Positions 35,041-39,862 are shown, numbered from the stretch's first letter. The stretch: 47,700 nucleotides of DNA from Candidatus Pacearchaeota archaeon (GCA_016866975.1 VGKP01000005.1:1-47700); one strand, 5' to 3'. Notes: generated from the sequence alone by a model not told the origin. Numbers and translations: made by a program.

Positions 35041-35160
35041 TTTCTGACCAAGATAAGTCTCAAGGCACTTTAAAGGAACTGTCGAACAAGTTTCTCTTTT
35101 AACTTCGAGCTACGAACTAAGAGTCTCGAGTAAGCTAAACCTCACAAGAATGGGCTCTTT

Positions 35161-35207
35161 GCGTAATTGCTGGAGTATTGTTTTAGTTGAGCGAGGCCTA
35201 TTTTTTA
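35161..35207. repeat. 47-bp dispersed repeat, copy 1
   Basis: GCGTAATTGCTGGAGTATTGTTTTAGTTGAGCGAGGCCTATTTTTTA; 45/47 identical to 37032-37078; 15 nt past a minus-strand stop codon. Confidence 0.9.
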
Positions 35208-35222
35208 AGATACCATTTGGAT

Positions 35223-35999
35223 TTATTTTCTTGCCTCTATGACATATCCTTGTTTTTCTAGTTCGGGTCTTAATATTGTAGCATAAATTAAAGGTTTATG
35301 ATTCCAATCTTCTTTCTTTGAGTAAGCACTACCTATAAACTGCCTTTCATTTTTATTCCACCAATTATCGAGACTAAGATGATTTTCTGGAACAAGAGCT
35401 ACAATAGGAAAATAGTGATCATCGTCGTTATATTTTGAACTCCAGAAGTCGTGCATAAAATTATTAGGTTCTCTAAAAAAATCTTTTAAAACAGATTTTA
35501 ATATTCCTTCATATGACCTAGAAAGAGAACTTGTTGAAAGATTAACCATTCTTCCTAAAACGGTTTGATTAAGTGCTCTAATTTTTCCAAATGGTCTAAG
35601 ATCTTGCAATTCTCTAAATATTATCCCTTCTTCACCTAAAACCATTTGCATTTGACCACGTGGATGTGGTGCGAAAATGTCATGTGGAATTTGAATTTGC
35701 CCATTAGGAATACTTCCTTCGTAAGGAACAATAGCCAGTTCCAATATGTTGTTTCCTCCATGTTCATATCTATAAGACTGATTTCTTATTGCAAACCATT
35801 TTTGTTCTAAGTTATACTCTTCAATCTCTTCTTTTGTTCTTGGAAAAGTTTTCCTCCAGACTTCTTTAACAGGTAGTCTTAAAGGATTTTGTTGTATAGC
35901 TTCATCTATATAATCAGAGCTAACTCTTGCTATTTTTGTAGCTATATCTGCTCCTTTCAATTCTTCTTCTACTATTTTTTTCAATGTTGGACTTATCAT
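35223..35999 (-). CDS. Hypothetical protein (AT-rich island)
   Basis: The ORF-track start at 36185 overlaps TrmB paralog 2, so ATG 35999 (MISPTLK) is preferred. No motif. Confidence 0.7.
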   Translation of the reverse strand: MISPTLKKIVEEELKGADIATKIARVSSDYIDEAIQQNPLRLPVKEVWRKTFPRTKEEIEEYNLEQKWFAIRNQSYRYEHGGNNILELAIVPYEGSIPNGQIQIPHDIFAPHPRGQMQMVLGEEGIIFRELQDLRPFGKIRALNQTVLGRMVNLSTSSLSRSYEGILKSVLKDFFREPNNFMHDFWSSKYNDDDHYFPIVALVPENHLSLDNWWNKNERQFIGSAYSKKEDWNHKPLIYATILRPELEKQGYVIEARK

Positions 36000-36109
36000 T
36001 TTTCCTTCTCGTGCTTTTTTGCACAACAAAGTGATAACAGGTCTTATCTTATATTTTATTTCTCCTGAAAAGGAGAAACATTTAAATAGACTAGAAAGTC
36101 TAAAGAGCC

Positions 36110-36847
36110 ATGCAAGAAGAATTAATAAGGCTGGGACTATCAAAAAATGAAGCAATAATATACTTATTTCTACTAAAAAATCCAAATATTACAACAGGCC
36201 TTATAATTAAAGAAACAGGAATATCGAATTCAAGAGTATATGAATCTCTAAATTCTTTAATTTTGAAAGGATTAGTCAACTATACTGTTCAAAAAGAGGG
36301 AAAATATTTTAATGCTTCTCCACCAGAAAAGTTCCTTGAAAAAGAGGAAGAGAGAATAAAACAAATAGAAATCCTTGTACCAGAACTTAAGAAGATTAAA
36401 GAAGAAAAGAAGTTTAGAACAAACACTGCCATTTATGAAGGATTTGAAGGATTTAAGACAGCATTTCAAAAGATAATAGATGACTGTCCTAAAGAAGATA
36501 CAATTTATATATTAGGTTTTTCAGAACAGCAATATGCAAAAGAGTCTCTTAGAACATTTTTAACAAATATGAATCTAAGAAGCCAACAAAAAAGACAAAG
36601 GCTGAAAATTCTGTTAGATAGTTCTACTAAAGAGATACTTGGCAAAGATAGAGAAAAAGAAAAGAATACGGAAGTTAGATACATGCCTAAAGGATACATA
36701 AATCCTAGTGCAATTGATATTTTTCAAGATTGTGTATATATATTTCTTTGGGAAGAAAAACCATTTGTATTTATGATAAAGAATGAACGAATTGCAGAAA
36801 GTTTTAAGCAATATTTTAATTTCTTATGGAAACTCGCAAAACCCTAG
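36110..36847 (+). CDS. TrmB-family transcriptional regulator (paralog 2)
   Basis: LGLSKNEAIIYLFLL...SRVYESLNSLILKGLV, IYEGFEGFK and AESFKQYFNFLWK; same architecture as 3705-4463. Confidence 0.9.
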   Translation: MQEELIRLGLSKNEAIIYLFLLKNPNITTGLIIKETGISNSRVYESLNSLILKGLVNYTVQKEGKYFNASPPEKFLEKEEERIKQIEILVPELKKIKEEKKFRTNTAIYEGFEGFKTAFQKIIDDCPKEDTIYILGFSEQQYAKESLRTFLTNMNLRSQQKRQRLKILLDSSTKEILGKDREKEKNTEVRYMPKGYINPSAIDIFQDCVYIFLWEEKPFVFMIKNERIAESFKQYFNFLWKLAKP

Positions 36848-36862
36848 AGTTATTGTTATCAA

Positions 36863-36909
36863 CTTCGGCTTAAGCCGAAGCCATCTGTCGCATAGCGACC
36901 CAAGCCCCC
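36863..36909. repeat. Double-hairpin module after a plus-strand stop codon
   Basis: CTTCGGCTTAAGCCGAAG then TCTGTCGCATAGCGACC-CAAGCCCCC; the second part recurs at 39563-39595. Confidence 0.65.
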
Positions 36910-37031
36910 ATTCAATTCTCGTACTACGCAATTTGCCGTTTACTTGTGATTAGGCGAGTTTTCTCAAAAAAACCCCTTGCTGAGCACGAAGCTCCAAGGG
37001 TTAGTAAACTTGACTCAAAATTTGAGGTTGG

Positions 37032-37876: not shown

Positions 37877-37909
37877 AGGTCAACTCTTTTTTACATATAT
37901 GTTAATAAA

Positions 37910-38230
37910 TTAGTGTTTATAAATTATTCTGTTCAAGTCATCGCACAATGCTTGTGTCTCCAAAATGTTATAGGGGACGAAGATGCTTGTTGGTGCCCAA
38001 ATCAACTTATACTTTTTTCCGTTCTTTAAATGGATTCGCAAAGCGGCATGTAAAATCGGATTCATATTAATTTTATAAATAGTGCTTATCGGGATTTTTG
38101 TAACTGGCTTTGTTGAAATTAGTATTTCTTTATTTGTTACAACAAGCTTCTGCGGCTTAATAGGTTTAAAGGAAAGAGTCAATTTTGGATTTAGAATAAC
38201 AGTATTAGAATATAATATCTTTCCCATCAA
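37910..38230 (-). CDS. Small hypothetical protein, possibly PH-domain-like
   Basis: KLVVTNKEILI...KIPISTIYKI...LRIHLKNGKKYKL beta-rich pattern. Confidence 0.6.
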   Translation of the reverse strand: MMGKILYSNTVILNPKLTLSFKPIKPQKLVVTNKEILISTKPVTKIPISTIYKINMNPILHAALRIHLKNGKKYKLIWAPTSIFVPYNILETQALCDDLNRIIYKH

Positions 38231-38280
38231 AAAGATTAGATTATATTGTTTTTAATTCTTTCTTTTTCTTTCAACTACTG

Positions 38281-38760
38281 TTCTACTGTCAGATAAAGCG
38301 CGCCACTATTGGGTGGGAGAAAAACTTCCGATATATTAACACATCTGGAAATTTTGGTTAAGCATGATTAAACGCCGAATGGCGTAAGGTTTCCGTTATC
38401 GCTTAACCGAAGCAAGCAATTAAGATTGAAGGTTTTTCTTGCAGGAAAAAAAAGCCGTAGGCTAAATTAAGCATTTCTTTTAATCGTTCAGGTTGGGCGA
38501 GGTTTTTGGCTAAAATATCCTTGCTTAGAATAACCAAAAACTTAGGTTAAATCTCGGTTCGAACGAAGAGAACATTTCAGGATGAAATGAGAGATTTACC
38601 GCCCAATGGAGATTAAGCGTCACGTATGTGCCCGAGGTGCGAATTCAGAGCCTCGGGGGTTGTAATTTGTTCGTTAATCTGCTCCGTAACGTGGTTGCTT
38701 TTTCACTTGCTCAAACTATTCGTTTTCGTGGGGGTCGGCTCTGCTGTTTTTGATGTATCT
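38281..38760. repeat. About 480-bp non-coding, hairpin-rich region of modular palindromic elements
   Basis: No ORF of 60 aa or more. Contains the ACGCCGAATGGCGT hairpin (38372-38385), CATTTCA/TGAAATG (38573-38589), CCCGAGG/CCTCGGG (38631-38657) and an inverted copy of the 39583-39738 element. Confidence 0.7.
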
Positions 38761-38814
38761 ATAGAGTAGTTAAATATGAATACCTTTAAATACCTATATT
38801 TTTGATGAACCTAT

Positions 38815-39507
38815 ATGGATAAAGATAGAATTCGTGAAAGTAATGAAAGAATAGGTAGATTAAAGCTTAGTGGAGCTCATATTTTGAGTGGAAAAAAAGG
38901 AAGAGAAGCCTATTCTAAACTTAAACCAAAACTATTAGAAAATACTCCTCTAAATTTGCACCATATATTTGATAGACCTATCTATGTCAGCGAGAGCATT
39001 ATGGGTGTTGGAACTACTGCATATAAAGATGGAATCGAAATAGTAGTTATTAATGAAAATTCCGCAAGATTACGTTATGTTAATCCTCCTTGCCCGTTAG
39101 TTAAATGCAAAATTCCAAACAGGCAAGACACTTTTGATAATACTGTGGCACACGAGTTTGGACACATTATTTACCATGAATTATTAAATCCAGAAATCGC
39201 CAAAAAATATGCTGGACACTATGATTGGTTTGGGGACAATACGTTTGTAGAAGCATTTGCATTCTTTTTCGGGGATAGAATTTCAGGTTATATAAATAAT
39301 GTAAGAATAATGTTTCCAGGTTATACTGAAGGAGATTGCCCGCCATGCCATAGAACACACTTAAGACAAATGTATTTTCACCTTCATAGACAGACAAAAT
39401 CTAAATCGATAAAAGATATAGTGATGGGCTTAGAAGATATTTTTGGGCAATTCATGGAAGAAAATAACAGAAAATTCTGGGAAAAGTATAATTCAAACAA
39501 ATCTTGA
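38815..39507 (+). CDS. Putative zinc metallopeptidase (HExxH plus downstream Glu)
   Basis: TVAHEFGHIIYH and FVEAFA; TATA at 38785. Confidence 0.75.
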   Translation: MDKDRIRESNERIGRLKLSGAHILSGKKGREAYSKLKPKLLENTPLNLHHIFDRPIYVSESIMGVGTTAYKDGIEIVVINENSARLRYVNPPCPLVKCKIPNRQDTFDNTVAHEFGHIIYHELLNPEIAKKYAGHYDWFGDNTFVEAFAFFFGDRISGYINNVRIMFPGYTEGDCPPCHRTHLRQMYFHLHRQTKSKSIKDIVMGLEDIFGQFMEENNRKFWEKYNSNKS

Positions 39508-39542
39508 CTATTTAGAAGTTAGAAATCTTTATTCATAATTCT

Positions 39543-39862
39543 CTTTGCATGAGCAAAGACTCTCTGTCGCTTTAGCGACCCCGAGCCGCCCCCCCGTTTT
39601 ATTTTTGAGCACATTTATTCTTAGAAAAAGCAATTACGTTTAAACAAGATTAGACGCCGAATGGCGTGGTGTTCGTGGAGTAGGTTTAAACGTAGCGGAG
39701 GAGCAGATTAGAATTATTTTCAGAATGAAAATAACCCCTATTGTTTTGCATGTGTTACGGGGGCAAATTAACAACTGCGTTTAATCACCCTTAAGCGCAC
39801 CTTTACCAATTTCAAAGGCCCTAAAAACAAGTGATGCCGTGCGCGTCGCGCCTGCGGCGCTC
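39543..39862. repeat. About 320-bp non-coding, hairpin-rich region of modular palindromic elements
   Basis: Hairpins CTTTGC/GCAAAG, GTCGC/GCGAC, TACGTTTAAAC/GTTTAAACGTA enclosing ACGCCGAATGGCGT, ATTTTCA/TGAAAAT and GCGCC-TGC-GGCGC. Confidence 0.7.

Follow-up and report, generated by a model that had tools for sequence, protein, structure and literature searches.

Positions 35041 to about 39965 of the Candidatus Pacearchaeota contig VGKP01000005.1 hold a cassette array, in which unrelated genes stand between dedicated, structured and co-oriented boundary elements that share a common junction core and end at a conserved anchor. The array is chromosomal and occupies a lineage-wide hotspot between the replicative DNA polymerase gene polB and an RsmB/NOL1-type methyltransferase gene. 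An earlier note on this contig had proposed a cassette-like organisation, and this is strongly backed: the same elements bound unrelated genes at the same locus in many relatives. It had also proposed that hairpins in the spacers are sites of recombination or single-stranded DNA (ssDNA) transposition and that the acting enzyme is encoded elsewhere; we infer both parts. The window analysed is the entire 47.7-kb contig, and its own genome (G000; other G numbers are related genomes and L numbers related loci or contigs) is that of a DPANN archaeon, 0.8 Mb in 31 contigs and 89% complete. Every genome used is a metagenome bin with genes called as simple open reading frames (ORFs), and the relatives compared are kin to one another, not independent samples.

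The boundary elements were defined from the DNA between the genes. When relatives were searched with spacer DNA, 11 of 16 congeners gave matches of 74-96% identity, clustered and often at contig ends, and the gene enclosed by the spacers had zero matches in the same search of congeners; along the island, nucleotide matches in relatives number 0 for the cargo genes and up to 31 for the spacers. Alignment of the spacer matches defined three elements, A (core of about 73 nucleotides, nt), D (core of about 156 nt) and E. Scans of the genome and its relatives with the corresponding covariance models (R1 for A, R2 for D, R3 for E) showed that all three recur in related genomes. In the window, the elements and the parts that belong to them are the following:

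35067-35195, plus strand: element D, a weak, degenerate copy shortened at its 5' end (R2, 46.6 bits, E about 1e-6), which opens the array 27 nt past the stop codon of polB
36848-36913, plus strand: post-gene hairpin block with a perfect 18-nt palindrome (36863-36880), a GTCGC/GCGAC hairpin and the C-rich box CCCAAGCCCCC
36914-37066, plus strand: element D, a copy without leader (R2, 125.4 bits)
38296-38349, plus strand: pre-A region with the GC box GCGCGCC, the G box GGGTGGGAG and an AT-rich box
38350-38421, plus strand: element A, copy 1 (R1, 81.2 bits)
38479-38485, plus strand: junction core TTTAATC, between A tail and D leader
38486-38723, plus strand: D leader and second full D core (core 38571-38723; R2, 108.6 bits)
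38730-38741, plus strand: left arm GGGGGTCGGCTC of the inverted repeat around cargo gene ORF230, 11 of 12 positions complementary to 39583-39594
39542-39594, plus strand: post-gene hairpin block after ORF230, with the hairpin TCTTTGC...GCAAAGA, a GTCGC/GCGAC hairpin and the right arm of the inverted repeat
39583-39594, plus strand: right arm GAGCCGCCCCCC of that inverted repeat, within the hairpin block
39632-39704, plus strand: element A, copy 2 (R1, 77.4 bits)
39775-39894, plus strand: anchor element E (R3, 89.3 bits)

Element A is made up of a stem of 12 bp (P1) in which U.G wobbles are conserved, a linker GAUUARA and a hairpin CGCC-GAAY-GGCG (P2) that are both invariant, and a variable third region. 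The two copies in the window already differ by compensatory changes, the outer stem of copy 2 being different (ACGUUUAAAC/GUUUAAACGU) around an identical inner hairpin, and such changes recur among the relatives (GC 20, UA 24 and CG 5 at one pair of P1; GC 34, AU 17 and GU 6 at another). Over 59 copies, paired cells amount to 96.1% versus 90.7% in shuffled alignments and the covariation score is 0.244 versus 0.153, with 0 of 500 shuffles as high. The fold is strand-specific: the G.U cells, about 90 in number, occur on one strand only and reverse-strand matches reach 18-20 bits versus 57-95. Upstream of most A copies lie a GC box and a G box as in the pre-A region of the window, in four sequence types; the hairpin block at 39542-39594 is type 4, common to L015 and L016, and the same block at 36848-36913 stands in pre-A position, with element A itself missing there. 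With upstream boxes and tail, A measures about 190-250 nt. A simple role as 5'- or 3'-untranslated region was rejected for A, as the neighbouring genes lie in either orientation.

Covariation is strong in element D too, which has three hairpins (H0, H1 and H2) around the conserved CCGTTTACTTGTGATTAGGCG: over 59 copies, paired cells amount to 93.3% versus 65.5% shuffled, double-change cells to 330 versus 101, and the score is 0.703 versus 0.199 shuffled (0 of 500 as high) and 0.04-0.13 in slid controls. The copy at 36914-37066 reads degenerate H0 hairpin, CCGTTTACTTGTGATTAGGCG, hairpins H1 and H2, GCGTAATTGCTG and T-rich tail. The element extends past its core, with a T-rich tail and a leader of about 95 nt that contains a covarying hairpin (in the copy at 38486-38723, GGTTTTTGG...CCAAAAAC, then GGTTCGAACGAAGAGAA); leader and tail included, D measures about 250-320 nt and has five to six covarying hairpins. 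A 47-nt repeat in the window (35161-35207 and 37032-37078, 96% identity, the second copy running to the stop codon of ORF265) is the end and tail of D abutting minus-strand cargo genes.

The order of the elements was analysed in 43 related loci, 33 of which have two or more modules. A and D lie between genes only, in 43 of 43 loci, and module orientation is uniform in 32 of the 33 multi-module loci. Most A-to-D steps are tight (24 of 35; 115-206 nt, no gene) while genes are present in 38 of 40 D-to-A steps, and no A-to-A step was found among the 43 loci. All 24 tight A-D junctions have a YTTAATC-type motif with invariant TAATC at a fixed distance of about 90 nt upstream of D, and this core is found also at A-E junctions and at the polB-D junction of G008, 14 nt after the polB stop codon. 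The array order is polB, D-cargo-A, D-cargo-A, then E and the methyltransferase gene, with D first and A last. The window reads polB, D, ORF320 and a TrmB-family gene, D, ORF265 and ORF106, A-D, ORF230, A-E, a coiled-coil gene and the methyltransferase gene; G008 has a single unit and reads polB, D, a different gene of 134 amino acids, A-E, methyltransferase gene.

Element E marks the end of the array. It has the junction core at its start, followed by a CTTAACCG box, a GC-rich hairpin and ATTGTGGCTATTTTT (in the window, TTTAATC at 39780-39786, a CTTAAGCG box, the hairpin GCGCGTCGCGCCTGCGGCGC and then ATTGTGGCTATTTT). The R3 scan found E in 15 of 17 genus genomes, with about one strong copy in each; four of the five array-free genomes have it (G004, G007, G010 and G012, which have neither A nor D), and in every case in which the stretch from polB to the methyltransferase gene is assembled, E lies within it. 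The sole other E match in G000 is a weak one (G000:C4:9386-9528, 40.5 bits, E 4.5e-4), which could be a second landing site or chance.

Across relatives, the gap between polB and the methyltransferase gene varies from 1.2 to 6.2 kb and contains different genes. Arrays are found beside either of these two genes in G000, G002, G003, G008, G009, G011, G015, G200, G217 and several metagenome contigs; the polB locus holds the majority of arrays, others lie away from it (G200:C22, G214:C10, G005:C1) and G001 has a solitary A-E. The copy numbers of A and D covary across the genus genomes, both being zero in the same 5 of 17. D was found in 11 of 150 sampled genera of the family and A was seldom detected outside the genus; together, A and D number more than 120 copies, all intergenic, over many genomes and at least 11 genera. 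Mixed module orientation was seen at a single locus, at about 19.2-22.0 kb of G005:C3 (L054/L029): D is on both strands there and the array is found on the upstream instead of the downstream side of polB, which suggests that the region was inverted or rearranged through the array.

The stretch 36937-37043 of the window (107 nt of D) is 100% identical to L035:433-539 from another Pacearchaeota species, whose cdc48 and methyltransferase genes are 66-70% identical to those of the window; both flanks of the block differ, and no other cross-genome pair of modules is as similar. Comparison of the sequences suggests a recent exchange. G005 and G013 have a three-gene cassette in common, 87% identical over the stretch between the D tail and a point 35 nt beyond A, and one cargo family can stand at different ranks in different arrays.

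In G000, A and D are confined to the island, and it is the other genomes that show them to be a family. By the terms of the earlier note, its proposal would fall if the modules occurred nowhere else, or genome-wide without association to variable genes; neither is the case, because modules occur in other genomes and are tied to variable genes there. Their confinement in G000, together with the degenerate copy at 35067-35195 and the truncated, leaderless copy at 36914-37066, would be expected if the spacers were ordinary intergenic DNA, made up of promoters, terminators and decayed gene remnants, that looks repetitive by local duplication and belongs to no dedicated system. This explanation is already contradicted by the many intergenic copies in at least 11 genera, the massive covariation, the fixed order and the block that is identical across species, and we consider it highly improbable.

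The five genes in mixed orientation and the four long spacers that the earlier note had described are borne out, with the spacers at 35041-35222 (182 nt), 36848-37078 (231 nt), 38231-38814 (584 nt) and 39508 to about 39965 (about 458 nt); the last is 458 nt long if the next gene starts at ATG 39966 and 323 nt if it starts at GTG 39831. They are indeed longer than the usual gene gap in the window (median 56 nt), though four gaps outside the island reach 369-499 nt. The long gaps at 16625-16997, 18168-18666 and 44831-45207 (373-499 nt) have no match to the models of A, D or E. Of the short modules that the note had listed, the recurrence is non-random (ACGCCGAATGGCGT twice in the window versus 0.00 expected, AGCAATTACG three times versus 0.01), but they are fragments of the larger elements and not independent units. 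Likewise, its description of the island as AT-rich holds for the cargo genes (GC 0.29-0.33 versus 0.376 for the window) and not for the spacers (0.38-0.43). Scans of the island with Pfam, NCBIfam and PADLOC returned no mobility gene, as the note had stated. The structured elements occupy about 2 kb of the 6-kb island, which argues for a function, because the genome is streamlined. The genes of the island and its borders are the following:

32713-35040: polB, family-B DNA polymerase; a FEN1 gene lies upstream and the island directly after
35223-36185, minus strand: ORF320, cargo; GC 0.32, no nucleotide match in relatives
36110-36847, plus strand: TrmB-family winged-helix regulator, cargo (Pfam TrmB, E 1.9e-13)
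37079-37876, minus strand: ORF265, cargo; membrane-anchored, with a weak PsbP/LpqN-like domain (Pfam), no nucleotide match in relatives
37910-38230, minus strand: ORF106, cargo; no nucleotide match in relatives
38815-39507, plus strand: ORF230, cargo; predicted zinc-peptidase-like motif HEFGH (HExxH), no nucleotide match in relatives
39966-41180, plus strand: coiled-coil gene; its listed starts (GTG 39831, ATG 39834) fall within element E
41205-42215: RsmB/NOL1-type methyltransferase gene, beyond the coiled-coil gene

The cargo is diverse: 106 genes between modules fall into 78 clusters. Pfam families include ParE, PIN, NYN, MazE, Fic, GNAT acetyltransferases, methyltransferases, M23 peptidase and TrmB/Lrp-type regulators, with the TrmB family being cargo in five further cassettes of related arrays. 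Many cargo genes match no family, among them ORF320 (no match in Pfam, NCBIfam, PADLOC or the protein Atlas) and ORF230 (none in Pfam or NCBIfam). No recombinase family is among the 25 cargo families listed or among the proteins scanned one by one. Within D-to-A intervals, cargo genes are in the opposite orientation in 40 cases and in the same orientation in 27.

The two ends of a cassette match each other. Inverted repeats of 10-20 nt bracket the cargo and lie inside D and A rather than at their outer ends; the matched repeats differ between cassettes but stand at the same positions (for example GAGAGTTGCCCGC/GCGGGCAACTCTC and GACGGCGCGC/GCGCGCCGTC). Complementarity across the cargo, between the tail of D and the pre-A region that comes next, is 20.7 versus 17.8 for mismatched pairs (permutation p < 2e-4), a moderate effect in loci that are mutually related. 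In contrast, a terminal helix closing the tight A-D unit found no support, as its outer flanks score 18.4 versus 17.7 (p = 0.2). Because the ends match across the cargo and not across A-D, D-cargo-A is favoured as the coherent unit. No target duplication beyond the shared core was seen.

A cassette consists of D on the left, A on the right and, between them, one to three unrelated genes that have promoters of their own and stand in either orientation; cassettes are arranged head to tail, with A of one abutting the next D across YTTAATC, and the array ends in E. We read this as a cassette-capture array, in which D-cargo-A units would be inserted or exchanged in a site-specific manner at the core, beside E or a resident D, as in an integron at attI/attC. 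The trans-acting enzyme, encoded elsewhere, would recognise the folded single strands of the strand-specific boundary elements, and the matched inverted repeats just inside D and A may bring the two ends of a cassette together. The chances of this reading are evenly balanced; it becomes rather probable when a variant with a Y1 transposon is counted in. The candidate enzymes are one of two XerA-type recombinases or an IS200-type Y1 transposase (IS, insertion sequence), and neither is linked to the arrays by evidence.

The two recombinases are the tyrosine recombinases of G000, at C7:16846-17685 and C22:9078-9893. Both pass the XerA_Arch cut-off (254 and 234 bits versus 220) and both are under the integron-integrase cut-off (202-203 bits versus 265, the match being split in two stretches). 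G000 thus carries two XerA-type paralogues where one is expected, and most genus genomes have at least two tyrosine-recombinase matches. XerA paralogues as a specific marker of arrays were rejected: array-free genomes carry them too. TnpB, IS110 transposase, serine recombinase and reverse transcriptase were not found in the 89% complete genome G000. It has at least three IS200-type tnpA (Y1) copies. These genes are of two kinds (C10:122-589; C6:1-153; C12:26760-26912); the second kind stands at the end of two contigs, and its right-end hairpin is CCCCACGG-TCTTG-CCGTGGGG, with AGCTTCAC after it.

Several observations weigh against the capture reading. No recombinase was found in or adjoining any array examined, no tyrosine recombinase lies near an array anywhere in the genus, and tyrosine recombinases of the XerA kind are also present in array-free genus genomes. 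The earlier note had suggested a search for co-occurring recombinases, and on the Y1 (HUH) side this gave a weak association: Y1 is present in 7 of 12 module-bearing genus genomes and, family-wide, in 6 of 11 D-positive versus 41 of 139 D-negative genomes, which is not significant. A and D are also unrelated to the hairpins at the ends of the resident IS200 copies. Neither an excised circle nor a same-species pair of empty and filled sites was seen, and G000 has no further A or D copies outside the island. The order is not absolute, as 11 of 35 A-to-D steps hold genes and there are 8 D-to-D steps, and the shuffle statistics overstate significance, because related genomes are not independent samples. 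Finally, the conserved loops (GGA in H0, GAAY in P2), the single-stranded linker and the one-strand G.U pairs fit a protein-binding RNA equally well.

The last point leads to a different explanation, which we regard as unlikely but as the chief rival: A, D and E could be structured non-coding RNA genes or domains (for example an A-D transcript of about 400 nt that acts as a protein-binding RNA, antitoxin or regulator) in a plastic region, with cassettes swapped from lineage to lineage by homologous recombination and the conserved stretches serving as portable homology arms. The G.U pairs are confined to one strand, alternation of U.G/U.A and of U.G/C.G is characteristic of helices in RNA, the loops and linkers GAAY, GGA and GAUUARA are invariant, and there are AT-rich boxes upstream of A and a T-rich run after D. 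Moreover, no recombinase is linked to the arrays, neither A nor the A-D unit has a match in virus (IMG/VR), phage or plasmid collections, and the 107-nt identical block could be a gene-conversion tract. Yet no Rfam family matches, even at E values up to 5: with the Rfam 15 covariance models, the window gives only two tRNAs at gathering score, and a relaxed scan of 34900-40000 returned a single match at chance level (17 bits, E 2.7). Because they are patchy, missing from 5 of 17 genus genomes, A and D are not housekeeping elements. The contiguous A-D unit is absent from G008 (D-gene-A-E) and from G001, which has A-E alone, and it is the flanks across the cargo that pair, while those of the tight A-D unit do not. 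As the AT-rich box is too near P1, at about -20, P1 is not at the 5' end of a primary transcript. Neither RNA genes nor homologous recombination need a strict order or a shared core.

Alternatively, the D-cargo-A units could be non-autonomous ssDNA transposons akin to the palindrome-associated elements of IS200/IS605, moved by the genomic Y1 (HUH) enzyme and inserting beside a short target, which would yield tandem co-oriented stacks. G000 has the tnpA copies for it, all 7 genus genomes with Y1 have modules and all 5 module-free ones are without Y1, and the ends are hairpin-rich and strand-specific and lack long terminal inverted repeats. In IS608, a guide pairs with the cleavage site. The GATTAR just 5' of the conserved hairpin and its complement YTAATC at the junction resemble this pairing, but GATTAA/GATTAG shows no covariation with the TTAATC/CTAATC junction core. 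Furthermore, Y1 was not seen in 5 of the 12 module-bearing genus genomes, including the two most complete, and its association at the level of the family is the non-significant one given above. Known ends of IS200/IS605 elements are much smaller than the present elements, which are concentrated at one locus rather than scattered and to which the end hairpins of the G000 IS200 are unrelated in sequence. The weak association and the unrelated end hairpins speak against a Y1 transposase as driver, and we consider this explanation improbable.

Among described systems, integrons have much of their layout in common with the arrays: an array at one chromosomal place, co-oriented and strand-asymmetric folding sites that are more alike within a lineage, a distinct anchor at one end, and small, diverse cargo rich in toxin-antitoxin and acetyltransferase genes with no recombinase inside the cassettes. 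Integron cassette arrays, including attC clusters without integrase (CALINs), have been reported in Archaea (Ghaly et al. 2022, PMC9668308), small clusters of attC sites in a few genomes of Pacearchaeales among them; our literature searches returned this archaeal integron paper only and nothing on the present array system. The array is not a canonical integron, because the tests for attC polarity and for IntI, made by a crude scan and by profile scores rather than with IntegronFinder, both fail. A crude scan of 35000-41300 for the attC architecture (RYYYAAC...GTTRRRY, 57-141 nt) on both strands gave 0 matches versus 0.15 in shuffled sequence, and stem P1 of A reads GTTAAGC...GCTTAAC, the reverse of attC polarity, with P1 variants not fitting either. 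In place of IntI there are the two XerA-scoring recombinases on other contigs; the boundaries are bipartite (A and D), about 500 nt long and conserved in sequence, in contrast to attC sites of 57-141 nt; the cargo is in both orientations with its own promoters, while integron cassettes are mostly promoterless; and the inverted repeats bracket the cargo and not the site. That we are dealing with an undescribed integron-like gene-capture platform of Pacearchaeota-type DPANN, with an anchor after polB, bipartite boundaries that fold on one strand and a non-IntI recombinase, is possible, though we would put it somewhat short of an even chance.

Other systems share some traits. IS200/IS605 elements and their derivatives (palindrome-associated elements; repetitive extragenic palindromes, REP, with RAYT) have hairpin ends that are strand-specific, lack long terminal inverted repeats, are served in trans by a transposase and have a conserved short motif 5' of the hairpin; here, however, the units carry cargo, are far larger and are stacked at one locus, the ends of resident IS200 are unrelated and co-occurrence with Y1 is weak. 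Miniature inverted-repeat transposable elements have terminal inverted repeats and target-site duplications; the present repeats bracket the cargo, inside D and A and not at their outer ends. The Xer-dependent pdif modules of Acinetobacter plasmids and integrative elements that accrete in tandem at one attachment site likewise have no recombinase of their own, a presumed host enzyme, toxin-antitoxin cargo and head-to-tail accumulation at one site, but their sites are 28-bp double-stranded ones in alternating orientation or short att repeats, in contrast to co-oriented boundaries of about 500 nt selected for folding as single strands. Minimal mobile elements of Neisseria also have different genes between conserved flanks and no mobility gene; their flanks are ordinary conserved genes, while here they are dedicated, repeated, structured elements with a junction core.

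The genomes of DPANN archaea are very small and these archaea rely on hosts; little is known of how they acquire and reshuffle accessory genes. If the capture reading is true, even symbiont genomes of 0.8 Mb keep a dedicated device for acquiring accessory genes, and a dedicated array whose sites follow rules of their own would embody the integron idea a second time, independently, and for the first time in a defined archaeal lineage and locus. If the elements are RNAs instead, they would be a new, well-supported class of structured RNA in archaea. Three covariance models (A, D and E), a junction core and a fixed chromosomal address are now available, and the acting enzyme, the nature of the substrate (folded DNA or RNA) and the turnover of cassettes in natural populations become testable.

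Two gene starts in the window may need correction. ORF320 probably starts further inside than its listed TTG, because from this TTG it overlaps the TrmB-family gene. The coiled-coil gene is absent from the polB-methyltransferase locus of G008 and L035, and it probably starts at ATG 39966, because its first 44 codons as annotated consist of E sequence, and in those two E does not code for protein. Two matches to A came from sequences assigned outside the archaea: one in a cyanobacterium is probably chance, and a full element A (128-200, 79.8 bits) on L034 (MGPL01000001.1), a contig binned as Deltaproteobacteria, is probably from a misbinned Pacearchaeota contig of the same groundwater sample.

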